DNA from: an uncultured Gemmatimonadaceae bacterium
Lineage (GTDB): Bacteria > Latescibacterota > UBA2968 > UBA8231
Length of the DNA stretch: 64,000 bases
Reading direction: 5' to 3'
NCBI GenBank assembly: GCA_964520345.1
Contig: CAZFMY010000014.1
Location: 10,671-74,670, forward strand
The stretch's first letter is position 1; each line of letters begins with the position of its first letter. Shown here piece by piece: positions 10,249-25,160 of this stretch. A program made the position numbers and the translations under genes. The notes under the pieces were generated by a model that was not told where the DNA came from, searched no databases, and saw nothing but the letters and a program-made list of their open reading frames with translations.

Positions 10249-13200
10249 CTACTTCACCAAGGTCATCCGCCCTAGTTGCGTCAACTCGCCGACTCGCACC
10301 CGACAGAAGTAGACCCCCGATCCGACCTCGCGGCCGGCTGCGTCCTTCCCTTCCCACACTGCGCGATGATAACCCGGCGCCAGCGGTTCCTGCAAAAGCA
10401 CCCGCACTCGCTGCCCCAGCGCGTTGAAAATCTCTACCGAAGTCGGCACCGGTCCATTGCCAAACGAGGGTACCGCAAATGGAATCGTCGTCGATGGATT
10501 GAATGGGTTCGGATAGTTCGGCGTAAGCACAAATTCTTCGGGGATACCCAAGAGACTGGGATCGCGCAACCATTCCAGCGGCTCGCTGCGATAATCCGAG
10601 CTAATCATTCGGCCTTCTTCGACCTGCAGCGATTCGGGAAATCCATCGCGGTGCAGACGGATCACGACCCGTAGTAATTCGCCATCACCAGCCGCTGCCC
10701 AATGCTTGCCGTAACGAGCCCCCGCCACCGCGATATGGCCTTCCTCAGCACTCAAGCGCTGAAAGGCCCCGAGTGGATTTTCGTCAAATACCGAGCCCAG
10801 ATCCGGATCGCCGATCACGCTGAGGTCGAATGGATCATAGCGCAGTTCCATTTCATATCCGGCCAGATCTTGTAAATCGCGGGCGAGGAAGACCAGTTCG
10901 ACCTCCTGCCCAGCACGCCATTCGCCGGCAAAATCGGGTGCGACAATATCCAGCGCCGAATTAGAATTGGATGGTGGCAAAGCTCGCTTGAAAACCGGTG
11001 GAGCTCCAAAACCAGTGCTATTGCTGATATTCGATGTCGCCAGTGAGAGGTCTTCCACCCCGACGCGACCATCGTTGGTCACATCAGCCCGAGCAAAATT
11101 GGCAACGCTGCTATCAATCCCCCAGGCCGCATCAATGGTGTTGACATCATCCTCATCGATTTCATTATCTCCACTGGCATCTCCCCCCTTGAGCAAGCGA
11201 CCATCCTGTTCGAGCAAAATCGACGGATCACCGCGCACGTCGGAGGCAAAGAAGCCGCTACTCGACGAGAGTACAATGGTCTCACCACTGCGGATCGCCA
11301 GCGTATCGGTGCGCCCGCTCAGATGGCTGGTATCCTTGACACTCAGGACATAACGACCAACCGGGATACTCACCAGCGTCAGTGCCCCCGAACTCGTCGT
11401 CTGCACTTCGACCGTGTCGGTCGTTGCGGGCAAATCGTCGTTGGCGCTGAGATAAATCGCATCGGCAATATCGATAGTACTACCCGGCAGACGCAGATGC
11501 ACATCGAGCAAGGTGCTGTGATCGCCACTGCCCTCGCTGCGTCCTTCGAGAAGAACTGTGGCCAGAACCCGCCCGCGCGCCACAACCTGCAGCCGGGCAT
11601 TCTGCACCGAAAGACCAGTGCTTTGCTTGAGCGCGCTGGCCGAACCGGTGATGCTCAACGCTGCCTCATCGGAGTCGAAGACGATATTCATAACGCCGGT
11701 GACTCCGCTCTGTACCACGATTTGAAAAGTGGCCAGACGCTCCTGATCGCCGTTGGAACCGACGATCTCACCGCCGGTTTTGTTTTTGGTGAAGCGAATC
11801 TGGGTGCCGGAACTGGTATTCTCAGCTATAGAACCACCGCTGAACACCTCTCCCAGATCGGTGCAAGGGCTGCCCGGGTTTATCACGGTAAAAAGACTTG
11901 AGCCCAGCTCGACAACCGCGCTGACCGACTCGATCGACTGGCTCTTGGACTGAACCCTGATTTCGAAGGTCAGCGTGTCGCCGGGCGAAGCCAGGAGCTT
12001 GCTCGGACTCAGTGAAAGCAGCGGTACCGAGCCAGAACCATTGCCAACGACCAGTTCGTTTGAGAATTTATTCAAACGCCCGGTAGTATTATCGGCAAAG
12101 GTCGCGTCGGCGCTAATTCCCGCGTACACCGAATAAGTTCCCACGGGCATTGCAAAAGAACTGGTTTCCGTATCCCAGGTAAACGAGTTGTCGCTGCTCT
12201 CGCGCAGTTCGGTGATTGTACCGGCACTCGTACCATCGGAACTGTTGATTATGAATGCATTGCCGCCGCCATCTCCCAGATCGCCCTCCAGGCTCTCCAG
12301 TGTGGTATGTGCACCGTTGGCTGCTGCATAGAGACGTATATAGGCATCGTCGGTACCCGAAGCATCATCGACCAGGTAGTCATCCCACTCAAAGCGCAAA
12401 ATATCGCCCCGACCGATCTCGGGCAAGCGGGTATTGGCCTGAATAAAGGGATTGTGAGTAATGGTCAGTGAGCCACCGCGGGCCACCGTGGTATTGCCAT
12501 TGCCATCGGTCACCACTGCGTAAATCCAGACCTGACGACCGCTTTTGGGCACTGCGTTAGGCGGATTGCGCAAATCCCAGACGTACATATCGTTCCTGCC
12601 ATCGCTGTCTTCGCTAAGCCCATTGACGATCAGTTTGGTATCGACATCGCTGGTCAGTGCCGTCGATGCGGCACCCGACTCGGTCGAGTAATCGGTGGTT
12701 GCCGGATCATCGGTGGTGAAGTACAGCGCAATACTCGCATCGTGGTCGAGATCCTTATCCCCTGGCCCTTTCTGCCACTGGATAGTATAAACCGGCTGCG
12801 ACCCCGAATCTACGCTGCGCTGAGTGTCCTCGGCCGGCTCGTAAAAAGTAAAGGCCGGCGAGTGCTTGACCACCAGAGCAGTGCTGCTATTACCGACACT
12901 GACACTGATCGAATCGGTTGCTACTGCATAGAGGTAGTAGATCCCCTCGGCGACCAACGGCGAACCAATATCCCAGGCGTACTCCACGTCGCGACTGCTC
13001 AAGGTCGTCGAATCGGTAATCGCCGTACCCCGAGTACCGGACACGCTTTTGCCCAGTGCGAATTTCTGGTGCGGATAGTTGCCCGATGCCGAAACCGAGG
13101 TGATGCCACTCACCGAGGCATAGAAGAGTTGCACCCGTGCTTCACTGTCGTAATCAAAGACGGTGAAATCCAGATCGTAAGGGCTGGCCTTGATGCCAGT

Positions 13201-15900
13201 GCGCACCCCGGTATCGACGGTATCGGCCGCGATAGGATCAATCTGCTCGATCACCGGACTGTGGAGCAAAGTCAGCGGCCCGGAACTGACGGCAAAAGTA
13301 GGTGGATTTTTCTGATCGTCGGCAATAATATAAATATGGTAGGTGCCGCTGGGCACTCGTAAGATCGAAGCGAAAAGCGAAGTCTTGAGCGCCGCGGGCG
13401 GATCGTCCCAGGTATAGGTCTGTTCGTTGCCTTCGGTCAAGTCGTCAGTCCCGGCTGGATTGACGCTGCTCAGGTCGTTTTCATCGGCGATCAGCATCCC
13501 GAAGATGCGGATATCCTGCACGGTCTTCAGCCCATTGGTCGGATAGGCGTAGAGCGCCACTTTGAGATTTGCGCCCAGGTCGTCATCGCCATCGACGGCG
13601 CTGTATTGGATCGCGAAGGAAGTATTGGCCAGATCTCCGCTGCCATCGGGCTGGGCGATCGAAACGATCGGCTTGATATTGGAGGTTACTATATCGATAT
13701 CGGCTCCCAGCAGAAAGAAATCGCCAGCACCTACGAAAGAGCCCGTCGGATCGGCAGCGACCCTCACCGTCCGCGCCCCCAACCCACTGCCGCCCGCGCT
13801 GGCAGTCGAATGGGTCACGACTTGTAAATTAGTCGCCGAATCGCTGCCGAGCACATTGAGCTTGAGCAAGAGACCGACCTTATCGCCGTCGTCGCCCCAT
13901 TCGTTAAGCGAAGAAGAATCCTCGTCGATCAGCCCCTCGAAAAACTTATCATCGTCGGCGAGACTGGTGGCTACCGTCTCCCAGTCGCCGGCCAGAAAAC
14001 CGTCGGAGCTAGCGGCCTGGGCACCAAGGCCGCTACCGTCCGCAGGATCGGCCACATGCACATAGACCGGATTATCAACCAATTCAGCAGTAATACTCTG
14101 GGGATTGACCGGAGTATAAGACAATGTGTACTGGTACGCTCCGACTGGAATCGAGTCGTCTTCGAACGTCGAAGCTTTACCCAGCACCTTGAAATAGGCA
14201 TGGTGATTGACATCGGTTTGGTGACCCAAACCGAACCCTTCACCACTCCCACCGGCAAAGGCCAGATAGATATTTTCCTCATCCGGGTTTTCGGCCAGGA
14301 CCGGGCTCAGCAAGAAGACATCGCCAGTGGCAATACCGTCCTGCGTACCCGTGCCGTCGGAGTCGTCATCGGCCACTTTCTCGGGCAGGGTCCAGCTGGT
14401 GCCGTTGTAGCGCGCATAGTAAATGTCGTGCTCGGCGCTGCCCGAATTGCCGGCGCTGAAAGCGATGTGTAAGTCGCCCCGATCGTCGAATCGATCGTCG
14501 ACTATCGCTGCGATGCGCTCGGTGATTTCCCAGTCCAATTCGATATTGTAATTGCCGGCCCCGTCGGCGAAAAGTGGCGGTGACGCCGTCTTCCAAATCG
14601 ACGTGGCGGAACCCCAGGTGACACCGCTGCCCACCAATCCCGAATCGGCGTAACTATTGAAATAGACCCCTTCTACTGGAGTCGCATCGCCAAATTTGAA
14701 AAGCGAGTAGACCTGATCAGGCAGGCGATTGCGATCTACGACGACTGTGGGAAAGAAATAATCGGCAGCGACCTCAACTGCCGCGTTAGCCTCATCGTCA
14801 AAAGTACCCACCGCCGCCCCGTCCGCATCCTGATTCCAACCATTGGCGCTCAGATCGATCCAGGTGGTATCGGTGGCCATTCGTTTGTGTTCGATACGAT
14901 CATCAGTATCATTGAAATAGACCAGGTGCAGTGCATCGCCATCCCCCACTGCCAGGTCCGGTCCGGTCGCTCTATCACCGTTTGGCGAGAGCCGGATACC
15001 CCCGGTACCTGCGGTTCCTGATTCGCCGATTGGCAGGATCGAAAAAGGCGAAGTGAAGCGATTGACTTTGGCCAGCATCACATCGTCGCTACCGGCCCCG
15101 GAGCCACGTACATAGGAGATGAAGATATTGTCGCGATCGTCGATGACCATCTGCGGAAAGGCGCTCTTGCGGCCTTCGACCGCTCCGCCGACCCGGGTGT
15201 CATTAACCTGAAGCGGCATCGGCCAGGTGGTGCCCCCATCGTTTGAGTAGGCCAGGTAGATATTCTTCTTGCGCTCGCGATCTGCCGTCGAAACAAAGCC
15301 GTAGACCACTCGCGGTTGTCCTCCGCTGTCAACTTCGAGATCGAGAGTCGAAAACGAACCCCCGCCGCCGTTGACCGTAAGCGGGTGGTAGGTGATATCG
15401 CCCGTGATGCTCACCGCCGCATCGAAATTCGCGCCGCCGTCGAAACTGCGCGAATACATGACGCGGTAGAGCGGCGTGGAGCCTCCGGTATAGGGAAATC
15501 CCGCGCGCGGGGTGGTCGTGGTCTGCTCGATCCAGGCCATATGGATGGCCGGATGGGTCGCCGAAGAGGTATAACCTGGAGCGGGGATATTGTCGTTGAC
15601 GCCGAAAGGCACTACATCGACCATCGCGATATCCACCTGCATTCCATCGGTATCGACTGAACCGATCTGCTCGCTGCGCTCAACGCTGTGAAAATGGCCG
15701 ACGAGCGGATATTCGTAACTCGCCGCCTGATCCAGGTCGACGCGAATATTGATGGACTCACCGACGACGAAATCGGTCCGGACCGTACTGTCCTGTACGG
15801 AGAAGCCGACTGGGGTTTTGTTCTCGAAGGTCGGTTTAACCGCCCGAAGTGCACTGGCTGTAGAGAGCACCAGCGCGCTATAGAGCAAGAGGCTTCGCAT
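10249..15900 (-). CDS. Giant secreted surface protein A: Asp-box/BNR region, Ig-like repeats, cohesin-like x2, dockerin, T9SS CTD
   Basis: Signal peptide MRSLLLYSALVLSTASALRA. Canonical Asp-box SNDGGTTW at nt 15223..15246. C-terminal modules are listed as separate features. The start is ATG 15898..15900 (TGATG overlap with the upstream stop) or GTG 15901..15903. Confidence 0.9.
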   Translation of the reverse strand: MRSLLLYSALVLSTASALRAVKPTFENKTPVGFSVQDSTVRTDFVVGESINIRVDLDQAASYEYPLVGHFHSVERSEQIGSVDTDGMQVDIAMVDVVPFGVNDNIPAPGYTSSATHPAIHMAWIEQTTTTPRAGFPYTGGSTPLYRVMYSRSFDGGANFDAAVSITGDITYHPLTVNGGGGSFSTLDLEVDSGGQPRVVYGFVSTADRERKKNIYLAYSNDGGTTWPMPLQVNDTRVGGAVEGRKSAFPQMVIDDRDNIFISYVRGSGAGSDDVMLAKVNRFTSPFSILPIGESGTAGTGGIRLSPNGDRATGPDLAVGDGDALHLVYFNDTDDRIEHKRMATDTTWIDLSANGWNQDADGAAVGTFDDEANAAVEVAADYFFPTVVVDRNRLPDQVYSLFKFGDATPVEGVYFNSYADSGLVGSGVTWGSATSIWKTASPPLFADGAGNYNIELDWEITERIAAIVDDRFDDRGDLHIAFSAGNSGSAEHDIYYARYNGTSWTLPEKVADDDSDGTGTQDGIATGDVFLLSPVLAENPDEENIYLAFAGGSGEGFGLGHQTDVNHHAYFKVLGKASTFEDDSIPVGAYQYTLSYTPVNPQSITAELVDNPVYVHVADPADGSGLGAQAASSDGFLAGDWETVATSLADDDKFFEGLIDEDSSSLNEWGDDGDKVGLLLKLNVLGSDSATNLQVVTHSTASAGGSGLGARTVRVAADPTGSFVGAGDFFLLGADIDIVTSNIKPIVSIAQPDGSGDLANTSFAIQYSAVDGDDDLGANLKVALYAYPTNGLKTVQDIRIFGMLIADENDLSSVNPAGTDDLTEGNEQTYTWDDPPAALKTSLFASILRVPSGTYHIYIIADDQKNPPTFAVSSGPLTLLHSPVIEQIDPIAADTVDTGVRTGIKASPYDLDFTVFDYDSEARVQLFYASVSGITSVSASGNYPHQKFALGKSVSGTRGTAITDSTTLSSRDVEYAWDIGSPLVAEGIYYLYAVATDSISVSVGNSSTALVVKHSPAFTFYEPAEDTQRSVDSGSQPVYTIQWQKGPGDKDLDHDASIALYFTTDDPATTDYSTESGAASTALTSDVDTKLIVNGLSEDSDGRNDMYVWDLRNPPNAVPKSGRQVWIYAVVTDGNGNTTVARGGSLTITHNPFIQANTRLPEIGRGDILRFEWDDYLVDDASGTDDAYIRLYAAANGAHTTLESLEGDLGDGGGNAFIINSSDGTSAGTITELRESSDNSFTWDTETSSFAMPVGTYSVYAGISADATFADNTTGRLNKFSNELVVGNGSGSVPLLSLSPSKLLASPGDTLTFEIRVQSKSQSIESVSAVVELGSSLFTVINPGSPCTDLGEVFSGGSIAENTSSGTQIRFTKNKTGGEIVGSNGDQERLATFQIVVQSGVTGVMNIVFDSDEAALSITGSASALKQSTGLSVQNARLQVVARGRVLATVLLEGRSEGSGDHSTLLDVHLRLPGSTIDIADAIYLSANDDLPATTDTVEVQTTSSGALTLVSIPVGRYVLSVKDTSHLSGRTDTLAIRSGETIVLSSSSGFFASDVRGDPSILLEQDGRLLKGGDASGDNEIDEDDVNTIDAAWGIDSSVANFARADVTNDGRVGVEDLSLATSNISNSTGFGAPPVFKRALPPSNSNSALDIVAPDFAGEWRAGQEVELVFLARDLQDLAGYEMELRYDPFDLSVIGDPDLGSVFDENPLGAFQRLSAEEGHIAVAGARYGKHWAAAGDGELLRVVIRLHRDGFPESLQVEEGRMISSDYRSEPLEWLRDPSLLGIPEEFVLTPNYPNPFNPSTTIPFAVPSFGNGPVPTSVEIFNALGQRVRVLLQEPLAPGYHRAVWEGKDAAGREVGSGVYFCRVRVGELTQLGRMTLVK
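10252..10530 (-). other. T9SS type-A C-terminal sorting domain of protein A
   Basis: VLTPNYPNPFNPSTTIPFAVP...VEIFNALGQRVRVLL...GVYFCRVRVGE...GRMTLVK. Confidence 0.85.
10570..10953 (-). other. Cohesin-like module 2 of protein A (boundaries approximate)
   Basis: LDIVAPDFAGEWRAGQEVELVFLARDLQDLAGYEMELRYDPFDLSVIGDP...GELLRVVIRL fits the cohesin beta-sandwich signature (G.eV.l.v....l..laG.e..l.YDp..L). Assigned by eye only. Confidence 0.55.
11017..11184 (-). other. Dockerin (type-I-like, two Ca-binding segments) of protein A
   Basis: GDASGDNEIDEDDVNTIDAAWG ... ADVTNDGRVGVEDLSLATSNI. Both loops carry D/S/T at positions 1, 3 and 5 and D at position 12 of the EF-hand-like loop. Verified by reverse-complementing nt ~11120-11184. 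Confidence 0.75.
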
Positions 15901-18900
15901 CACTTGACCAGAGTCATCTTGCGGATCTGTTGGAATTGGCCGCTCTCGAGCCGGTAAAAGTACACACCGGCCCCCACCTGGCGCCCCGTATCATCGCGGC
16001 CATCCCAGGCCATCTGGTGGTACCCCGCCTCTACCGGGCCATTGAGCAAAGTCCGCATCCGCTGTCCCAGGACATTGAAGACCGAGAGTCGCACCGATGC
16101 CCGGTTCGGCAGGGCAAAGGGGATACTGGTACTGGGATTGAAGGGATTGGGATAATTTTGTTCGAGATCGGGCCTGAGCGGCAATAGCGCTTCGATCAGA
16201 TTGCCCTGCCAGCGCACCCTTTCTAGCTCATAACCCGAGCTGAGCAACATACCCTCCCCTGTCCGCAGCGACTCCAGCGCATCCTCGTGCAAAATCTCGA
16301 AGCGCAAGCGCGCCAAAGCCCCCTGCCCCACTGCCGACCACTCTTTGCCGTAACGAGCCCCGATCACTTCGATCGTGCCTCCATGATCGGTACGAGCTTC
16401 AAAGATGGCTCCGCGCGGGTTCTCGGCAAAAACATCTCCCTCTCTTGTTCCGCCCGGAACCAGGCGCATGAGCTGCGGATCGAAATACAGATCAAACTCG
16501 TAACCAGCCAGATCACCGAGGTTCTGCGCCTGTACCGCCACCTCGATTTCCCGACCAGGCCACAGCGGTTGACGCAGATCGAAAAGCGGGAGTATTTCCA
16601 CCACAGCCCCATCGTTTGCCCCGGGCACGATCGGTTTGAAGACCGGCGGGGCTCCAAAACCCTCACTATTGCCAAAATTAGATGTCGTCGCCGTCAGATC
16701 GGCCGCCCCAACCTCATTATCGTTATTGAGATCGGCCTGCTGGAATCTCGGTGCGATCTGCGAAGTGCCCCAGGCCGCGATGATGATGTTGACATCGTCC
16801 TCGTTTATTTCGTTGTCCTCGCTGGCGTCTCCGGCCATCAGCCGCCTTCCCGAATTGTCCAGTAGCGTCGTCGGATCGCCGCGCAGATCGGAGCTGAAGA
16901 AACCACTGATGTCGGTACCGACCGCCACGGTCTGGCCGTTGGCCACGGTGAATGTATCGGTGCGCCCGCTGATATGGCTCGAATCCTTGACGGTCAACAC
17001 ATAGCGCCCCGGCGGCACACTGCTGAGAGTCAAAGCCCCGGTTGTCAAAGCCGTCTCGACCTCGACGGTATCGCTAGTGGCGGTATAGTCGTCATTGGCG
17101 CTGATGAAGATCGGGTCGGTGATATCGATGGTGCTGCCCGGCTGCCGCAAATGCACATCGAGTAAGGTCTGGAAGTTATTGTCGTTCAGCGTGCGGCCTT
17201 CCAATTCCACAATGGCGGTGATCGTGCCGCGCGTAACGCGGGTGAATTGCGGATTTGAAAGCGTCAGTCCATCCCCACTGTCGAAAGGGTCGGAACGACC
17301 TTCGACCCCGAGCACCGTTCCCGCTTCACCGGTAGCGAAGGTCAACGAGGGTGCTGCCACTAAATTGCCAGTGGGAACCAGCTGGAATCGCGCCAGCCGT
17401 GCCGGCTGGGTAGCACTGCCGACGACCTGGCCCAGGAAACTGGATTTGGAAAAGCGCAGTTCGTTGCTGCCGCTGACGAAGGTATTCTCGATCGGGCTGG
17501 TACCGGCGAAGACCTCGTCGAGATCGACAAATGGCTGAGGGCCGGAATTCGAGCTCTGATCAACGATCGAAAAACTGGTACTACTGTTGAGATCGAGCAC
17601 AACCTGTACGAAGTTGATCGGACTAGTGTGCTGAACCATCACGTCCAGAGTCAAGGTATCGCCCACAGCCACCAATTGATCGGTCGGGCTGACACTGATA
17701 TTGGGCATCGAACCAGTACCCGAAAGGCTCAGCGCTGCCACCGAGCGACTGACCGAAGCCGCGTTGCTGCCATTACTGAAGGTCGGATCGGATAAGATCG
17801 CCGCATAGATATAGTAGTTGGATCCGGCAGCGCCGAAGAGTTTGGTATTCCAGTCGAAGAAGTCGAGACTATCTTCGCGCACCTCGCTGATCGTGCCCGT
17901 CGTCAGGCCATTGGAGCTGTTGATCAGGAACCCGTTATTACCGATATCGGCCTCGAGTAGCTGGGGAGTCAGCAAAGACGATGAGGTCGAGGCATAGAGC
18001 CGAATATAGGCATTGTCGGTACTCGAACCATCATCGACCATATAGTCGTCCCAGGTGATGCGCAGAACATCGTTTTTCTGGAAATTGCTATAGCTGTTCA
18101 GCTTTGAGCTGAGCAGATTGATATGCGGATCGTGCTCTATCGTCAGCGCCCCACCCAGCGCCACGCTGCTGTTGCCGCTGGAGTCGCTGATCACCGCATA
18201 GAGCCAGACCTTGCGCTTGGAACGCGGTACGTCGTTGGGGGGGCTGCGAAAATCCCAAATGTACATATCGGACTTGCCTTCGGCGTCCTCCTTCAGCCCT
18301 TTGACCACGGTCCGAGTATCGGCATCCTTGAGCAGTGAATCGGGAAAATTCTCGTAATTGACCGTCGCCGGGTTATCGGTGGTGAAGTAGAGATCGATCA
18401 TTGCATCGTTGTCGAAATCCTGATCGCTGCGCCCTTTTTGCCACTGAATAGCATAGACCGGCTGCGATCCGCTATTGATATTTCGGTGGGTGTCCTTCGG
18501 CGGCTCGTAGAAGGTGAACGACGGCGAGTGCTTGACCGTCAGCGCCGCGGCCGACTGACCGACTGCGAGATTGAGCGAGTCGCTGGCCACCAGGTAGATG
18601 AAATAGGCGTTCTCGGCTACGATCTGCGAATCGATACCGGCGCCAACGCGGACGGCAACTGAATCCGTTATGTCCCAGGAGAACTCGGTGGCGATACTGG
18701 TCAGAGTATCGGTTCCGGTGATCGGGATCGCCCTGACTCCCGATACGCTCTTGCCCAGCGTGAAGCGCTGGTTGGGGAAGGTTCCGATGACCGATACTGA
18801 AGAGAGACCACTCACCGACGCATAGAAGAGCTGGATCTCGGCCGTACCCTGCAAATCGAAGTCGCGCACGGTGAAATCGAGATCGTAGGGATTCGCATTT

Positions 18901-21653
18901 TCTCCGCTGCGCACGCCGGTGTCGACCGTATCGGCCACCGATGGATCTACATGGACGATGATCGGCTTGTGCTTGATCGCAAGTGCTCCGGGACTCCGCG
19001 CAAAGACCGGCGTATTTTTCTGATCGTCGGCGACCAGATAGATATAGTACTCGCCGCTGATCACCTGCGTGATCGAAGCGAAGAGCTTGGCCTTGAGCGC
19101 GGCGGAAGGTTCGTCCCAGGTATAGGACTCGCTCCGGCCCTCGATCAGATCATTTGTACCGCTGGCAAAGATCGAAGAAACATCGTTTTCGTCGGCGATC
19201 AGGGTCCCGAAAATCCGGATGTCCTGCACCGAAGCCAGCGAACTATCGGGCGAATAGTAGAGCGAAACCAAGAGTCCGCTGCTCGCAATCTCGTCGTCGA
19301 TATCGTCGAGGCTGTAGACAATCGGGTACGAGGTGCTGGCCTCATCGCCCACACCATCGGGTTGCGAGATCGAAACTACGGGCGAAGTATTGGACGTAAC
19401 GATATCAATATCAGCCCCGAGTTGAAAGAAGTCTCCGGCCACCACAAAAGACCCCCTCGGGTCGGTAGCGACCCTAACCGTACGCGCCCCCAACCCCGTG
19501 CCGGAAGCGCTGGCCGTCGAGTTGGTCACCACCTGGATATTGGTCGCCGAATCGCTGCCGAGCACGTTGAGTTTGAGCAAGAGACCAATCTTGTCGTCGT
19601 CATCGCCCCACTCATTGGTCGAGCTGGTATCCTCGTTGTATTTGCCCTCGAAGAGCTTGTCGTCGTCGGCCAGGCTGGTAGCCACCGTTTCCCAATCGCC
19701 GGCCAGGAACCCGTCCGTACTGCCCTTGCCCGTTGCACCCAGTCCGCTTCCATCGGCATTATCGGCCGCGTGCACAAAGACCATATTATTGGTGATCTCG
19801 GAAGAGAGACTCTGCGGGTTGACCGGCGTATAGCTCAAATCGTATTGAAATGCTCCAACCGGCACCGAGCGGTCCTCGGATGTCAGAGCGCGACCCAGGA
19901 CCTTAAAGTAGGCGTGGTGATCGACATCGCTGATCCCCTTGACCCCCAATCCCTCTCCACCACCACCCGAAAAAGCCAGATAAAAGCTGGTGTCGCCCTC
20001 GGCCTTGGCCAAAACCGGCGATCCGAGAAAAACATCTGTGGCGGCAATCCCGTCCTCAGTAGCCGAATCCGAGTCGTCATCGGCTACTTTCTCTGGCAGA
20101 ATCCAGCTCGAACCGTTGTAAAACCCATAGTATATATCGTGCTCACCGGCATTATTGGAATACCCGGCGCTGAACGCGATATGAACCTCGCCCTGGTCCG
20201 GGCGCCGATCGTCGATCGCCACCGCCACGCGCTCCGTTACCGTCCACTCGAGTTCGACGTTGTAGTTGGTTCCATCTGCAAAAAGCGGCGAAGCAGCGGT
20301 GCTCCACACCGCCGCGGCCTGACTCGTATTCCAGCCGGCATTCCCGCCAATTGCGTTGTCGTAGGTGTACTTATTGAAGAAGATCGTCTCCAGAGTGGCA
20401 TCCCCGAACTTATAGATTGCGTAGATCTCATCCGGCGAACTTTGCCTATCAACAGCAATGGCCGGAAAGAAGAAATCGGCTTCGGTCTCCAGCGCAGCCA
20501 CCGTGGCTTCATCGACAAAATCATCGATATCCGCTCCGTCGGCGTCCTGATTCCACCCCGTGCTGCCGACCATCTGCCACGAATCAGCCAGCAAGGTCTT
20601 GTGCTCTATATCGTTGCCGGCATCGTTGAAATAGGCCAGATGCAATACATCTCCCGTACCCACATCGATATCCGGGCCAGTGTAGCGCCCGGCATTGGGC
20701 GTGATCCTGATTCCGCCCTTACTGCCACTATTGGCCGATTGACCCACTTCCACCATCGAGAAGGGAGTGGTCTCGCGATCGACCTTGGCCAACATAATAT
20801 CGTCGGCACCGCTGCCGGGACTCGACCCTCGTACGTAGGAGATGAAAATATTGTCGCGCTGGTCGATCACCATCCGGGAAAAGGCCGCGGCCCGGCCCTC
20901 GATATTACCCACCGTCGCCGTATCGTTGACAACGATTGAATTATTTCCCGGCAGCCACGAAGCACCACCGTTTTCTGAATAGTTGAAATAGACGTTATCG
21001 GCATCGCCGCTGGTGTTGACAAATCTCGCCGTGTGGCCATCCGGCGAGTGATTGAAGGCATAGACCACGCGCGGATTGCCCCGGCTGTCCACCTCGATAT
21101 CGACGGTCGAAAAGGCATTGCCGGTTCCGCCAACGCTCAGAGTCAGCAAGTCGTAGCGCAGCGTGCCCGAAACACTGACCGGTGTAGAAAAAGTCTTGCC
21201 CTTATCTTCACTCCGCGCATAGCGGACGTAATAGACCGGAGTCGACACAGTGCTGACCGTTTCCTGGGAGATCCAGGCCATATGGATCACTCCGTTGGAG
21301 GAAACAGCCAGATCGGTCCGCAGCCCATCGACATCGCTGCTTTCGATCTGCACGCTCTGTTCTATATTGTGGAAATGGCCGTAGAGCGGGTGGGTCGGAG
21401 TCGCAGCCTGATCGAGATCGGCGCGCACAGTGACCTGATTGCCCAGAACAAAATCCTCCTGGGTCGTACTGTCCTGGGTCGAAAACCCCACCGGAGTGCG
21501 GTTTTCAAAAATCGGAGCAGCACCGTAGACCGAGGGGGCCAACCAGAGCAGCACCAGCAGTCCGATCGCGATCCAGGGGGTCGAGAACCGCCCTGTGCAC
21601 TGCGATCGACAGCCGGTATGTAGCGGCGTATTGCTCTGAGCCGAGGATTTCAC
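15900..21653 (-). CDS. Giant secreted surface protein B (paralogue of A): Asp-box/BNR region, Ig-like repeats, cohesin-like x2, dockerin, T9SS CTD
   Basis: 1917 aa with a GTG start and signal-like WIAIGLLVLLWLAPSVYGA. Asp-boxes SEDKGKTF and SENGGASW. Long blocks are near-identical to A (HHAYFKVLG, GFLAGDWETVATSLADDDK, NEWGDD.DK.GLLLKLNVLGSDSATN). The module order matches A. Confidence 0.9.
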   Translation of the reverse strand: MKSSAQSNTPLHTGCRSQCTGRFSTPWIAIGLLVLLWLAPSVYGAAPIFENRTPVGFSTQDSTTQEDFVLGNQVTVRADLDQAATPTHPLYGHFHNIEQSVQIESSDVDGLRTDLAVSSNGVIHMAWISQETVSTVSTPVYYVRYARSEDKGKTFSTPVSVSGTLRYDLLTLSVGGTGNAFSTVDIEVDSRGNPRVVYAFNHSPDGHTARFVNTSGDADNVYFNYSENGGASWLPGNNSIVVNDTATVGNIEGRAAAFSRMVIDQRDNIFISYVRGSSPGSGADDIMLAKVDRETTPFSMVEVGQSANSGSKGGIRITPNAGRYTGPDIDVGTGDVLHLAYFNDAGNDIEHKTLLADSWQMVGSTGWNQDADGADIDDFVDEATVAALETEADFFFPAIAVDRQSSPDEIYAIYKFGDATLETIFFNKYTYDNAIGGNAGWNTSQAAAVWSTAASPLFADGTNYNVELEWTVTERVAVAIDDRRPDQGEVHIAFSAGYSNNAGEHDIYYGFYNGSSWILPEKVADDDSDSATEDGIAATDVFLGSPVLAKAEGDTSFYLAFSGGGGEGLGVKGISDVDHHAYFKVLGRALTSEDRSVPVGAFQYDLSYTPVNPQSLSSEITNNMVFVHAADNADGSGLGATGKGSTDGFLAGDWETVATSLADDDKLFEGKYNEDTSSTNEWGDDDDKIGLLLKLNVLGSDSATNIQVVTNSTASASGTGLGARTVRVATDPRGSFVVAGDFFQLGADIDIVTSNTSPVVSISQPDGVGDEASTSYPIVYSLDDIDDEIASSGLLVSLYYSPDSSLASVQDIRIFGTLIADENDVSSIFASGTNDLIEGRSESYTWDEPSAALKAKLFASITQVISGEYYIYLVADDQKNTPVFARSPGALAIKHKPIIVHVDPSVADTVDTGVRSGENANPYDLDFTVRDFDLQGTAEIQLFYASVSGLSSVSVIGTFPNQRFTLGKSVSGVRAIPITGTDTLTSIATEFSWDITDSVAVRVGAGIDSQIVAENAYFIYLVASDSLNLAVGQSAAALTVKHSPSFTFYEPPKDTHRNINSGSQPVYAIQWQKGRSDQDFDNDAMIDLYFTTDNPATVNYENFPDSLLKDADTRTVVKGLKEDAEGKSDMYIWDFRSPPNDVPRSKRKVWLYAVISDSSGNSSVALGGALTIEHDPHINLLSSKLNSYSNFQKNDVLRITWDDYMVDDGSSTDNAYIRLYASTSSSLLTPQLLEADIGNNGFLINSSNGLTTGTISEVREDSLDFFDWNTKLFGAAGSNYYIYAAILSDPTFSNGSNAASVSRSVAALSLSGTGSMPNISVSPTDQLVAVGDTLTLDVMVQHTSPINFVQVVLDLNSSTSFSIVDQSSNSGPQPFVDLDEVFAGTSPIENTFVSGSNELRFSKSSFLGQVVGSATQPARLARFQLVPTGNLVAAPSLTFATGEAGTVLGVEGRSDPFDSGDGLTLSNPQFTRVTRGTITAIVELEGRTLNDNNFQTLLDVHLRQPGSTIDITDPIFISANDDYTATSDTVEVETALTTGALTLSSVPPGRYVLTVKDSSHISGRTDTFTVANGQTVAVGTDISGFFSSDLRGDPTTLLDNSGRRLMAGDASEDNEINEDDVNIIIAAWGTSQIAPRFQQADLNNDNEVGAADLTATTSNFGNSEGFGAPPVFKPIVPGANDGAVVEILPLFDLRQPLWPGREIEVAVQAQNLGDLAGYEFDLYFDPQLMRLVPGGTREGDVFAENPRGAIFEARTDHGGTIEVIGARYGKEWSAVGQGALARLRFEILHEDALESLRTGEGMLLSSGYELERVRWQGNLIEALLPLRPDLEQNYPNPFNPSTSIPFALPNRASVRLSVFNVLGQRMRTLLNGPVEAGYHQMAWDGRDDTGRQVGAGVYFYRLESGQFQQIRKMTLVK
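15903..16169 (-). other. T9SS type-A C-terminal sorting domain of protein B
   Basis: DLEQNYPNPFNPSTSIPFALP...LSVFNVLGQRMRTLL...GVYFYRLESG...IRKMTLVK. It ends in the same MTLVK as protein A. Confidence 0.85.
16218..16607 (-). other. Cohesin-like module 2 of protein B (boundaries approximate)
   Basis: VVEILPLFDLRQPLWPGREIEVAVQAQNLGDLAGYEFDLYFDPQLMRLVPG...ALARLRFEIL. Confidence 0.55.
16665..16832 (-). other. Dockerin (two Ca-binding segments) of protein B
   Basis: GDASEDNEINEDDVNIIIAAWG ... ADLNNDNEVGAADLTATTSNF. Confidence 0.75.
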
Positions 21654-21947
21654 AATTCCATTCCTTAGAATTATCGTTCCACCCGTTGAGAACGAAAGAC
21701 TCCCTTCACAAGCCCCGGTTCAGCAAGAAAGATGCCATACTTATATATGGGCAAAAGATCTGGCTTAAACCCCAGATAAGGTGCCATTTCTCTTCTGACG
21801 AAAGGAATTTCCTTCTTTTGATTCGGGAAAGATCTTCCCCTGCAGAGGGTAATTGCCCCATCCAGCCCCCCGATTTCACCCGGGTCCATCCTGGCATGAG
21901 ATTTGCCCCCTATCCTGCGGCAGGTCCTACTCAGGGAGGAAGCGCTT

Positions 21948-24900
21948 GTGGACAAACGAAACCTATACAACCTGATTTTTGTACTTTTCAGCTTGCCGGC
22001 GACCCTATTCGCCGCCCGGTTGGAACTGCGTCAATCCGGCACCGGAGCCACGGAAGCCTCCGCGCTAGTCGGTCAGGAGATCGAAATCGAGGTCTGGATC
22101 GATTCGGAAAGCGAAGAGCTTTCCGGAGCGGCGATCTTTCTCAGCTTTGACGAAACGCGCTTCGCGCTGGTTGATGAGGATCGGGTCCCCCAGGCAGGTT
22201 TCCAGCCCTTCGCTCCGGGCGAGTTTCTGGGCAACGGCGAAATCTATCGCAACTATCTGCTTGCAGAGGATGACCCGGCTGCCGGGGCCCCCGGCACCCA
22301 ACTCGACTATAGCGTGGTCCGCGCCGGTGACCAGGGGCAGGGACCTATCGCCTCTTTTCGCCTGCGAACATTGGCCCCCACTATAGGGAGTGCGATCCGC
22401 ATCGACGAAAGCGGGGTGCGCGAGACGCGTTTGTTCCTGCCCGATGGTCAGCAACGCGCTTTCCGCTTCATCACCCCATTCAACCTTACTGTAAAGGGCA
22501 TCTCGATCAGCGGCCTGCCCGAAAAACTGATCCTGGCTCGGGGCAGTACCCGGGAACTAGACCTGAACGATCTGGTTTTCGATCCGCTCTACGGCCCCGA
22601 CGACCTGACCTGGACCATCTCCAAAACTGCGGCGCTGACCTCGACTCGCGAAGGCAATAATCTACTCTTAGAGACCCCTGCCGACGCTTCACCGTGGGAA
22701 CGATTGGTGCTCACAGTCGCCAATCCCGAAGGACAGACTGCATCTGATACGATCGATATATTCGTCAACGCAGCCCCCACCCTGAGCGATATAGGCCCAC
22801 TGGTCTTTGCCGAAGACGAATCCTACGAAATCCCCCTCGACGCCCTAGTCGACGATCCCGATAGCCCCACCGAGTCGCTCACCTGGAGCGGTTGGAGCGA
22901 AAGCCCGAAAATCGAAATAGAACTCACCGGATCGCCCGCTAGCGCCCATATTGTTCCGCAACCCGAGTGGCACGGTCAGGGACAGATCACACTGATGGTC
23001 CAGGACAACTACGACTTCGCCGATACCCTGCACCTCGAGGTCTCAGTCGATCCGGTCAACGATGCTCCCCGTCTGCTCTCTTCTCCCAACCTGCGCCTGA
23101 CCAGCGGCACTCAGGATAGCAGCCTGGTACTTGCGGAACTGATCGCCGACATCGAAGATCCATCCAGCGCGTTAAAGTTTTCCTGGAGCGGCAACGAGCG
23201 GGTCGGACTGGAGTTCCGCAACGAACGACTGATTCTGAGCAGTCCTGCGGATTGGGAAGGCCTTGAAGAAATCACTCTGGTAGTAGAAGATTCGGGAGGG
23301 CTGACCGATACCGCTCTGCTGACCGTAACGGTTGTTCCCTCCCTGCCCCCGGCTCTCATCGCCCCTCCCCAGCGGCTGGGCCTAGCAGCAGGAGAGCACC
23401 ACCTGCTGGTATTGGGCGACCTTGCCGTCGATCCCGACAATCGCGCCGAAGACCTGGTCTGGACCGTACATGGCCATACCTACCTGAGCGTGCAGTTCAG
23501 CGGCGGCAACCTAGCCCGGATCGAAGCCCCAGCTAATTTCATCGGGATCGAGACTCTGACGTTCTCGGTTGCCGACCCCTCGGGCAGCAGTAGTGCTTTC
23601 GATCTGATCGTCTTCGCGGCCTCGACCGACGGCGGCCCGCTACTCGCAGAACTGCCTGAGATCCAGATGTCGCTCCTCGGAGTGGATACTTCGATCGACC
23701 TCGACCACTACGTCTTCGACCCCGACCACACCCATGCCGAATTGGCCTTCTTCCTACCCGTACTCGACGAGGTCGAGCTTCGAGTCGACCCGCTGACTCA
23801 CTTGCTCATAGTAGACCCCGGCGCCAATGCTCAACCCGGCCTGCTGGAGTTGGAAGTGCGCGTCGTCGACCCGGATGGTCACGAGGCGGTACAGATTCTG
23901 CGCCTTGAACTTCTCGGCGAAAACAACCTTGCTGCACCCTCTTTCGACCTGGCTGAAATTCCCAGTTTCACCCTCATCACTGGCAAGATCCACTCCTTCA
24001 GTCTCGACGCCTTTGTCGTCGGCGACGTCGAACCAGCAACGGTCGTCTGGCAAGCCCAGGGCCAGCAAAACCTGATAGTCGCCATCGACCCGGCCACTCG
24101 CCAGGTCAGCGTGCACTCGGCCGATGCATGGATCGGCAACGAGGAAATCACTTTTATCGCCGAGGCTCCCGATCTGCCGCCGCGGGCGCGCACGGTCCGG
24201 ATCGCTATCATCGCCGACCCTAATTCTCCACCTTTGAGCATCGTTCCCGAACTCAATGCCCTGCCCCCACTGCAAATCGAGGCAGGAACCTTTGATCAGA
24301 CCCTGGACCTCAACACTTTTCTCAGCAACGCCGACGCAGCCGATTTCACCTGGAAATTGAGTGGCGGCACGCATGTCCGCGCACTGGTCGATACGGAAAC
24401 CTACCACCTGCTGGTCTTTACCGACGAGGGGTTTAGCGGCGAGGAAACCCTCTTGCTCATCGGCACACTGACCGATGGCACTCGCCTCGAAACCGCGCTA
24501 GAGGTGGAGGTGTATTCCCAGACCCTGAGCTTTGCCCTCAATCCACAGACCGAAGTTCCCCTCTTCGCCGGCGCCGCCACTTTGCGCCTGCCCTTCGATC
24601 AACTAGTTAGCGGCGATATCGATCCATCTCTGCTCACCTGGGTCGCCAAAGGCCTGCAACCAATATCGGCATCTTACGATTCACAGGATCAGACTCTGGT
24701 CCTGACGCCCGACACCCCCTGGCAAAGCAGCGATCTCATTGAACTAGTCGCCATCGATCCCCAGGGCAACGAATACACCGGAATTGTTCGAGCCCAGGTC
24801 TTCCCGGCTGATGGGAGCGCCGGTCTGGAAAGCGAGGACTTCCAGCTCGTGATCCTGCCCAATCCCCTGCAGCCCGAATACGTCGACCTCTACCTCATCA

Positions 24901-25160
24901 GCCGACTCGACCATAGCGAAGCCCCAATCCTGCGTCTAGCAGACGGCGCCTGGAACGACCTGACCACTAGTGCTCACAGTGCTGGAATCTGGCGGGCTAG
25001 CTACGTTTTTGCACCCGGCCAACGGGGTCAATTCGAATTCCTGGCTCTCAGCTTCGACACCGATAACGAGCTATTCAAATCCATGCAGACCTGGAGTCTG
25101 ACCAACACCAAAAAAATCGCCGCCAAATACACAGGCGGCTATGGGTGGCCTGCGGATTAA
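21948..25160 (+). CDS. Large secreted protein: N-terminal cohesin-like module, eight ~96-aa Ig/cadherin-like repeats, degenerate CTD-like tail
   Basis: GTG 21948 lies 7 nt after GGGAGGA (21934..21940) and gives the signal-like VDKRNLYNLIFVLFSLPATLFAARL. The listed TTG 21903 is less likely. Cohesin-like segment: GQEIEIEVWIDSESEELSGAAIFLSFDETRFALVD. Repeats carry the DPVNDAP and L.W..-type motifs. Confidence 0.85.
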   Translation: MDKRNLYNLIFVLFSLPATLFAARLELRQSGTGATEASALVGQEIEIEVWIDSESEELSGAAIFLSFDETRFALVDEDRVPQAGFQPFAPGEFLGNGEIYRNYLLAEDDPAAGAPGTQLDYSVVRAGDQGQGPIASFRLRTLAPTIGSAIRIDESGVRETRLFLPDGQQRAFRFITPFNLTVKGISISGLPEKLILARGSTRELDLNDLVFDPLYGPDDLTWTISKTAALTSTREGNNLLLETPADASPWERLVLTVANPEGQTASDTIDIFVNAAPTLSDIGPLVFAEDESYEIPLDALVDDPDSPTESLTWSGWSESPKIEIELTGSPASAHIVPQPEWHGQGQITLMVQDNYDFADTLHLEVSVDPVNDAPRLLSSPNLRLTSGTQDSSLVLAELIADIEDPSSALKFSWSGNERVGLEFRNERLILSSPADWEGLEEITLVVEDSGGLTDTALLTVTVVPSLPPALIAPPQRLGLAAGEHHLLVLGDLAVDPDNRAEDLVWTVHGHTYLSVQFSGGNLARIEAPANFIGIETLTFSVADPSGSSSAFDLIVFAASTDGGPLLAELPEIQMSLLGVDTSIDLDHYVFDPDHTHAELAFFLPVLDEVELRVDPLTHLLIVDPGANAQPGLLELEVRVVDPDGHEAVQILRLELLGENNLAAPSFDLAEIPSFTLITGKIHSFSLDAFVVGDVEPATVVWQAQGQQNLIVAIDPATRQVSVHSADAWIGNEEITFIAEAPDLPPRARTVRIAIIADPNSPPLSIVPELNALPPLQIEAGTFDQTLDLNTFLSNADAADFTWKLSGGTHVRALVDTETYHLLVFTDEGFSGEETLLLIGTLTDGTRLETALEVEVYSQTLSFALNPQTEVPLFAGAATLRLPFDQLVSGDIDPSLLTWVAKGLQPISASYDSQDQTLVLTPDTPWQSSDLIELVAIDPQGNEYTGIVRAQVFPADGSAGLESEDFQLVILPNPLQPEYVDLYLISRLDHSEAPILRLADGAWNDLTTSAHSAGIWRASYVFAPGQRGQFEFLALSFDTDNELFKSMQTWSLTNTKKIAAKYTGGYGWPAD
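22500..24803 (+). repeat. Eight tandem ~96-codon Ig-like modules (tandem-95-repeat-like), diverged
   Basis: Recurrent pattern (D/E)xLxW(T/S)...W.G.E.ITL.V.D..G...D...L.V.V, for example PDDLTWTISK, TESLTWSGWS, SALKFSWSGN, AEDLVWTVHG, PATVVWQAQG, AADFTWKLSG, PSLLTWVAKG. 768 aa / 8 = 96 aa per unit. Confidence 0.7.

Follow-up and report, generated by a model that had tools for sequence, protein, structure and literature searches.

Two adjacent paralogous genes, A and B, in the 64,000-nt stretch analyzed here (the window; positions 10,671 to 74,670 of contig CAZFMY010000014.1, assembly GCA_964520345.1) were found to encode proteins whose last ~600 residues formed the same five-module tail: Cohesin-1 (Coh1)–CarboxypepD_reg-like beta-sandwich (CPD)–dockerin (Doc)–Cohesin-2 (Coh2)–type IX secretion system (T9SS) C-terminal domain (CTD). 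The source organism was described as an uncultured marine Latescibacterota-type bacterium. This tail was a reusable cassette and was not private to A and B. The reading that we favor, at roughly even odds (a probability of about 0.5), is that it serves a Ca-dependent surface network in which, after T9SS export and anchoring, dockerins would plug into the cohesins of neighboring molecules, by analogy with known cohesin–dockerin systems.

The module order had been put forward for both paralogues in a preliminary description made from the nucleotide sequence, and it was borne out by hidden Markov models (HMMs), profile comparisons, and structure models. The nucleotide ranges given there translated exactly to the peptides quoted: (i) Coh-like 1 at amino acids (aa) 1291-1440, CPD-like sandwich at aa 1441-1550, dockerin at aa 1574-1629, Coh-like 2 at aa 1651-1778, and CTD at aa 1779-1884 in A and (ii) dockerin at aa 1608-1663 and Coh-like 2 at aa 1683-1812 in B. 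The two genes and their tail modules were delimited as follows.

Gene A, 10249..15903, minus strand: 1884 aa, with signal peptide, ~1,290-aa conserved head, and five-module tail
A T9SS type A CTD, 10252..10542, minus strand: aa ~1788-1884; FlgD_ig 36.1 bits, TIGR04183 21.2 bits
A Cohesin-2, 10552..10968, minus strand: aa ~1646-1784; Pfam Cohesin 19.1 bits, family HMM E 4e-42; fold taken from the orthologous B module
A dockerin, 10987..11193, minus strand: aa ~1571-1639; two Ca loops and invariant GFGAPPVFK tail; Pfam, profiles, family HMM
A CarboxypepD_reg-like beta-sandwich, 11254..11565, minus strand: aa ~1447-1550; directly upstream of the dockerin; PF13620 17.1 bits
A Cohesin-1, 11566..12018, minus strand: aa ~1296-1446; family HMM E 4e-53, no Pfam match; fold inferred from the orthologous B module
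Gene B, 15900..21653, minus strand: 1917 aa, module order as in A
B T9SS type A CTD, 15903..16181, minus strand: aa 1825-1917; FlgD_ig 34.6 bits, TIGR04183 31.8 bits
B Cohesin-2, 16191..16616, minus strand: aa 1680-1821; Pfam Cohesin 34.2 bits; Foldseek
B dockerin, 16635..16841, minus strand: aa 1605-1673; Pfam 22.4 bits, profile matches to solved dockerins, three modelled helices
B CarboxypepD_reg-like sandwich, 16884..17219, minus strand: aa 1479-1590; weak PF13620 match; homology to A
B Cohesin-1, 17220..17702, minus strand: aa 1318-1478; modelled with AlphaFold2 (AF2), pLDDT (per-residue model confidence) 95.8

The cohesin fold is a nine-stranded beta-sandwich (jelly-roll) that binds dockerin via its 8-3-6-5 sheet. 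The two cohesin-like segments were set against the alternative of generic immunoglobulin (Ig) or Fn3 folds, and both displayed the cohesin fold in structure models and Foldseek comparisons. Pfam Cohesin (PF00963, cut-off 24.1 bits) matched Cohesin-2 above the cut-off in B and below it in A. The Cohesin-2 model had pLDDT ~95 across the domain with nine strands called, and its Foldseek comparison with the Protein Data Bank (PDB) gave 108 matches at E≤1e-3 with target template modelling (TM) scores up to 0.74; all 50 of the 50 matches listed were cohesins, and the top ones were type II anchoring cohesins (ScaB Coh3 4u3s and SdbA 2bm3). Cohesin-2 is thereby modelled as having the cohesin fold. Its most conserved residues fell on strands 3, 6, and 8 by order, which is suggestive only.

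Cohesin-1 of A and B gave nothing significant in Pfam, in NCBIfam, or with a 36-sequence profile against PDB sequences; among the five weak matches of that profile, three were cohesins (E 0.2-0.5). The AF2 model built from the 36-sequence alignment had a predicted TM score (pTM) of 0.90 at the pLDDT given above, and nine of its nine PDB matches at E≤1e-3 were cohesins (TM 0.55-0.65; 6kgf_C at E 2.6e-6), including C. acetobutylicum CohA2, R. flavefaciens ScaC, A. cellulolyticus ScaA, and C. thermocellum ScaC2, followed by Ig V domains at TM ~0.3. Because this confident model matched cohesins only at E≤1e-3, Cohesin-1 is predicted to be a true, very divergent cohesin fold. Structures of non-cellulosomal cohesins (A. 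fulgidus and C. perfringens) also occurred among the fold matches of Cohesin-1/Cohesin-2. Direct hhalign comparison of Cohesin-1 with Cohesin-2 was not significant (E 0.19), and the two were connected only via the fold and via the N-terminal head of neighboring gene C (see below).

A dockerin consists of two duplicated segments, each with an EF-hand-like Ca loop (ligands at positions 1, 3, 5, 9, and 12) followed by a helix. Pfam Dockerin_1 (PF00404, cut-off 22.9 bits) scored 19.0 bits on the A module alone and the value listed above on the B module alone, a borderline result, and in the genome-wide scan the B dockerin was counted as reaching 22.9 together with neighboring matches. A profile from 36 diverse tails matched solved dockerins among PDB sequences at E 1.4e-5 to 0.009, the best being the C. 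thermocellum CipA X-dockerin 3kcp_A (E 1.4e-5) and the P. cellulosolvens Cel48 dockerin 2y3n_B (E 0.004). The two 12-residue Ca loops were canonical (GD-x-S/T-x-DNEI-x-EDD and AD-x-NND-x-x-VG-x-x-DL), each with a helix after it, and the dockerin model contained the three expected helices. When the loops were inspected for Ca-ligand geometry, the full ligand pattern was found to be kept, with the ligand positions invariant or at least 90% conserved (105 homologues; 36 diverse tails). The nine residues GFGAPPV(F/Y)K, with which the linker begins right behind the dockerin of this class (class I, see below; window positions 10969-11010 and 16617-16660), were invariant family-wide and had pLDDT <50 in the fragment model; perhaps they serve as a short motif for binding or processing.

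Type-specific positions, defined as those that differ between A-type and B-type proteins with at least 85% conservation inside each type, made up 6 of 60 dockerin residues (10%) compared with ~1% in every other protein part. Among them were position 17 of segment 1 (I in B, D in A) and position 10 of segment 2 (A in B, V in A), which are established sites of cohesin recognition in type I and II dockerins. Of the tail modules, the dockerin also ranked first in the proportion of positions that both types conserve (45%). This combination of a high type-specific share with high common conservation suggests a binding surface, on which the specificities of the A and B dockerins would have diverged and then been retained. 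The same figures bear on the reading that the modules are structural spacers, which kept their folds and no longer bind: the weak Pfam scores and the absence of any sequence signature from Cohesin-1 would fit it, but the Ca ligands and dockerin helices were nearly invariant down to 30-35% identity and the dockerin topped the tail modules in both kinds of position, and we regard this reading as highly improbable.

The beta-sandwich directly upstream of the dockerin was recognized in Pfam by sub-threshold CarboxypepD_reg matches only (cut-off 32.3 bits), scoring 23-30 bits in relatives and lower in A, and such sub-threshold matches recurred at the same tail position in many relatives. It occupies the place that the X module has in type II X-dockerins and, by this analogy, may stabilize the dockerin likewise.

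In the T9SS of Porphyromonas, the CTD carries the protein through the outer membrane, PorU cleaves the CTD, and the new C-terminus is joined to a surface glycolipid. The CTDs of A and B both exceeded the FlgD_ig cut-off (27 bits), and with TIGR04183 (T9SS type A sorting domain, cut-off 23 bits) B scored above the cut-off and A reached its listed 21.2 bits; on these matches, A and B are predicted T9SS cargo. A PorU sortase orthologue was present on contig C61 of the genome (NF033707 647 bits, cut-off 420). The CTD model built from the A/B family matched 173 open reading frames (ORFs) of the genome, a number suggesting that the T9SS secretome is unusually large given a genome size of 7 Mb.

The tail had been described as that of two paralogues; it was indeed present in both, and it proved not peculiar to them, being reused on many unrelated proteins. 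Within the genome, the complete Coh1–CPD–Doc–Coh2–CTD tail was carried by five proteins: A, B, one encoded on contig C206, and two on contig C4, the latter three being found with HMMs from our own alignments (Coh1–Doc–Coh2–CTD) and confirmed by Pfam. When a dockerin-plus-Cohesin-2 profile was applied to 1.84 billion representative proteins, 2,124 matched at E≤1e-3; among the best 150 of these, 78 matched dockerin and cohesin in one continuous stretch, and ~50 of the 78 continuous matches left a C-terminal remainder of 85-134 aa, as long as a CTD. Ten of these representatives were scanned with Pfam and had unrelated heads (a Kelch propeller, as in P0188; CARDB plus Golvesin_C, as in P0203; or nothing recognisable), followed in the same order by Cohesin, CarboxypepD_reg, Dockerin, Cohesin, and a FlgD_ig/Por_Secre_tail CTD, each module being detected in most but not all of the ten; P0203 displayed the first four tail modules in that order.

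Across the phylum, the Doc–Coh2–CTD part was present in 81 of the 81 genomes sampled, at ~30-35% identity and on ORFs of 260 to 3,000 aa, and full-length A/B relatives among these genomes were confined to part of the window's own taxonomic family. Some ORFs of ~280 aa in relatives matched Coh2 and CTD only and are candidate minimal surface sockets. Conserved ORFs of this kind were observed in two other families (f2 and f3) of the window's class, e.g., G073:C1:936240-936881 and G052:C1:5247043-5247672. Given this reuse across the phylum, the tail is likely a general device for snapping proteins together at the cell surface, with no enzymatic role.

The preliminary description had further suggested that proteins carrying both partner types could polymerize head to tail or cross-link A with B into an anchored multimer. 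Since the cohesin folds and the Ca-ligand pattern hold, the anchored-multimer part is reasonable, with real plug and socket modules beside a T9SS CTD; the cross-linking of A with B is disfavored by exploratory co-variation. This co-variation was obtained by partial Mantel (mirror-tree) tests on 26 genome-matched A/B pairs with background divergence removed, giving r of 0.45 for DocA–Coh2A, 0.47 for DocB–Coh1B, 0.37 for DocB–Coh1A, 0.22 for DocA–Coh2B, and 0.01 for DocB–Coh2B, and a within-type co-variation analysis agreed with the mirror-tree pairs. At this exploratory level, co-variation leans to partners of the same protein type over strict A–B cross-linking, and by its nature it does not separate binding within one chain from a homotypic chain of molecules.

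The favored network can be envisaged as follows. The CTD would take A and B through the outer membrane via the T9SS; PorU would remove the CTD, and the new C-terminus, just after Cohesin-2, would be joined to a surface glycolipid, so that Cohesin-2 would then sit at the membrane, in the manner of an anchoring scaffoldin's cohesin. Each Ca-loaded dockerin would insert into a cohesin of a neighboring copy, the partner being most likely of the same protein type, with A–B pairing or the gene C head as possible variants. Linked in this way, the anchored molecules would make up chains or a net, a surface layer held together non-covalently and dependent on Ca, in which the second cohesin would permit branching or bring in the gene C product or class II dockerin proteins (see below).

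Several points weigh against such a network: (i) the linker of 22-54 residues would equally permit binding in cis; (ii) every tail module was acidic, and net charge gave no pairing hint; (iii) the mirror-tree partners, although significant, differed between the paralogues (DocA–Coh2A and DocB–Coh1B), and this exploratory signal could be produced by regional rate variation; (iv) Cohesin-1, which in sequence resembled neither known cohesins nor Cohesin-2 detectably, may by now bind another ligand or none; and (v) anchoring after CTD removal is assumed by analogy with P. gingivalis biology, that is, from distant Bacteroidota.

The dockerin might instead pair within its own chain, with Cohesin-2 in A and perhaps with Cohesin-1 in B, forming a rigid Ca-dependent pedestal that would hold the 1,300-aa head off the membrane with no network. 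The length of the linker would suffice for this, co-variation was strongest within the same polypeptide, and the five class I tails each had their own diversified dockerin recognition residues, always together with their own cohesins. Yet the AF2 single-chain model of dockerin plus Cohesin-2 (pTM 0.64, linker pLDDT <50) contained no confident cis docking, DocB and Coh2B did not co-vary, two cohesins would not be needed, and the Coh2–CTD-only ORFs of relatives would be left unexplained; we consider binding in cis rather doubtful, while keeping it in view.

The genome-wide Pfam scan gave 14 cohesin and 11 dockerin matches, and iterated HMMs raised the repertoire to ~32 ORFs with cohesin or dockerin modules. 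The dockerins were divided into two classes: (i) class I, the A/B kind, found in five proteins, with asymmetric segments, the ending G(F)G-x-x-PV(F/Y)K, a position always before Cohesin-2 and CTD, and helix residues that differed among the five and (ii) class II, found in ~17 proteins, with GDF-x-GDG-x-V-x-F-x-DFF-x-FAD-x-FG twice, symmetric and much more uniform, and located at the extreme C-terminus without a CTD in seven proteins. Examples of class II dockerin loci were C114:17206-19893, C224:2453-4399, C64:32125-37698, C6:105675-107429, and C4:108117-112232.

These class II proteins are the basis of another reading, in which the cohesins of A and B would mainly capture CTD-less proteins ending in the symmetric 'DFFxFADxFG' dockerin, and the A/B dockerin would plug into separate cohesin–CTD anchors, as in an adaptor scaffoldin. 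It is in line with the number of class II dockerin proteins (seven of them C-terminal without CTD), with several cohesin-plus-CTD proteins, with the ~280-aa Coh2–CTD-only ORFs of relatives, and with similar schemes proposed for Cloacimonadota (PMC8542988). However, class II dockerins often lay beside their own cohesins in other tails, which makes those cohesins nearer candidate partners, and class I dockerins were confined to Coh1–Doc–Coh2–CTD tails; such a recruitment scheme is unlikely as the main role of A and B.

The network that we favor differs from a cellulosome, which was considered and rejected. No glycoside hydrolase (GH) or carbohydrate-binding module (CBM) was found by Pfam scan in A, B, C, and 14 other cohesin/dockerin proteins, which were built of Ig, cadherin, Kelch, FG-GAP, BNR, and MBG modules; in the absence of GH and CBM from the scanned proteins, the system is not a cellulosome, and it would be adhesive or structural.

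A and B formed a tandem on the minus strand (10249..21653) and displayed 54% identity across 1,832 aligned residues. The B stop TGA shared bases with the A start ATG (TGATG, window 15898-15903), and this stop–start overlap suggests translational coupling, with co-translation of B and A; an in-frame GTG was also present one codon upstream at the overlap. The A/B family had >1,000 proteins at E≤1e-3, the named ones being mostly labelled Latescibacterota and some labelled Gemmatimonadota, and A-type and B-type proteins constituted two old orthologous groups, adjacent on the same contigs. The A/B heads (window 11990-15850 and 17750-21520) had 32% of positions at least 85% conserved in both paralogue types, exceeding the tails. 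They gave no Pfam or NCBIfam relative except weak BNR matches with two Asp-boxes each, and the N-terminal 1,300 aa gave no PDB-sequence match with the full-length family profile.

Divergently from B lay a third gene.

Gene C (P0003), 21903..25160, plus strand: divergent from B; N-terminal cohesin head (nt ~22014-22409), then Big_9/cadherin-like repeats

The gene C head matched Cohesin-1 (hhalign probability 90.6%, E 1.3e-6) and Cohesin-2 (probability 70.7%, E 3.8e-5), and it is assigned as a predicted cohesin on this profile–profile comparison. Homologues of gene C were located on the same contigs as A and B, and a 2.68-Mb contig of a relative carried a divergent ~1,050-aa Big_9/FlgD_ig protein, then B, then A. 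The conserved three-gene locus (A, B, and C) totalled five cohesins and two dockerins. On the same 2.68-Mb contig, a 1,250-aa Peptidase_C25 protein, PorU-like or gingipain-like, was encoded ~2 kb downstream of the A/B pair (L011:23380-25790), differing from the arrangement of the window's genome, whose PorU gene lies on the separate contig C61.

The A/B tail was also compared with known cohesin–dockerin systems. As in clostridial type II X-dockerin/anchoring-cohesin pairs (C. thermocellum CipA CohI9–X–DocII plus SdbA; 3kcp, 2b59, and 2bm3), a beta-sandwich directly preceded a two-loop Ca dockerin and a cohesin adjoined the cell-surface anchor, with 3kcp_A as the best sequence match and type II cohesins as the best fold matches; the asymmetric segments of class I dockerins likewise resembled those of single-mode type II dockerins (PMC12484212). 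Unlike in these pairs, plug and socket shared one polypeptide without enzymes or CBMs, the anchor was a T9SS CTD on a diderm outer membrane rather than an S-layer homology (SLH) module or a sortase signal, and the upstream sandwich was CarboxypepD_reg-like and not the X module of CipA.

The presence of cohesin(s) and dockerin in one protein is known from adaptor scaffoldins and from anaerobic methanotrophic (ANME) archaea (PMC12484212, PMC9012536). As in adaptor scaffoldins (A. cellulolyticus ScaB, R. flavefaciens ScaC/ScaH) and ANME proteins, each A/B protein could receive and be received; in those systems, however, the dockerin is terminal and the partners are other proteins, whereas in A and B the dockerin was internal between two cohesins and followed by an export/anchor tag, and the tail was mounted on large non-scaffoldin heads.

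A CTD-anchored cellulosome-like system has been proposed for Ca. Stygibacter (Cloacimonadota) by Williams et al. 2021, with a multi-cohesin scaffoldin of 3,755 aa and with hydrolases and peptidases that bear dockerin tags (PMC8542988). Both cases involve a candidate phylum from the FCB (Fibrobacteres–Chlorobi–Bacteroidetes) group and combine cohesin/dockerin modules with a T9SS CTD for surface attachment; unlike Ca. Stygibacter, the genome studied here had a fixed Coh–CPD–Doc–Coh–CTD tail and no hydrolase on any dockerin protein scanned. For Latescibacteria, the passage of PMC7081726 that cites Farag et al. 2017 mentions cellulosome-affiliated proteins. In our literature search, no report was found that joined Latescibacteria with both dockerin and cohesin, and neither a fixed Coh–CPD–Doc–Coh–CTD tail, nor an HMM-silent Cohesin-1, nor a paralogue-specific dockerin code was found described. 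The tail also resembled non-cellulosomal cohesins (Archaeoglobus fulgidus 2xdh; C. perfringens NagJ/NagH toxin complexes 2ozn and 2jh2) in its use outside cellulose degradation, and it differed from them in organism, anchor, and module order.

Few known modular protein glues are as strong as cohesin–dockerin pairs, which have found wide use in synthetic biology; to our knowledge, little is known of their natural roles outside cellulosomes. The fixed tail joined both partner types to a type IX secretion anchor, and no genome sampled from this uncultured, globally distributed phylum lacked its Doc–Coh–CTD part. The case of Cohesin-1 indicates that a cohesin fold can escape current HMMs entirely, so cohesin counts from metagenomes would be underestimates. 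Should the pairing proposed here hold, the tail would account for how a very large secreted proteome (the 173 CTD proteins) is organized at the surface, and it would be a source of new orthogonal, Ca-switchable plug/socket pairs. A wider and more tentative proposal is that this phylum-wide self-complementary tail might tie T9SS cargo on the outer membrane together in a Ca-dependent lattice resembling an S-layer, with paralogue-specific dockerin codes setting the partners and the symmetric class hanging CTD-less proteins on it; if true, such a lattice would amount to an enzyme-free equivalent, in a diderm, of the system that anchors cellulosomes.

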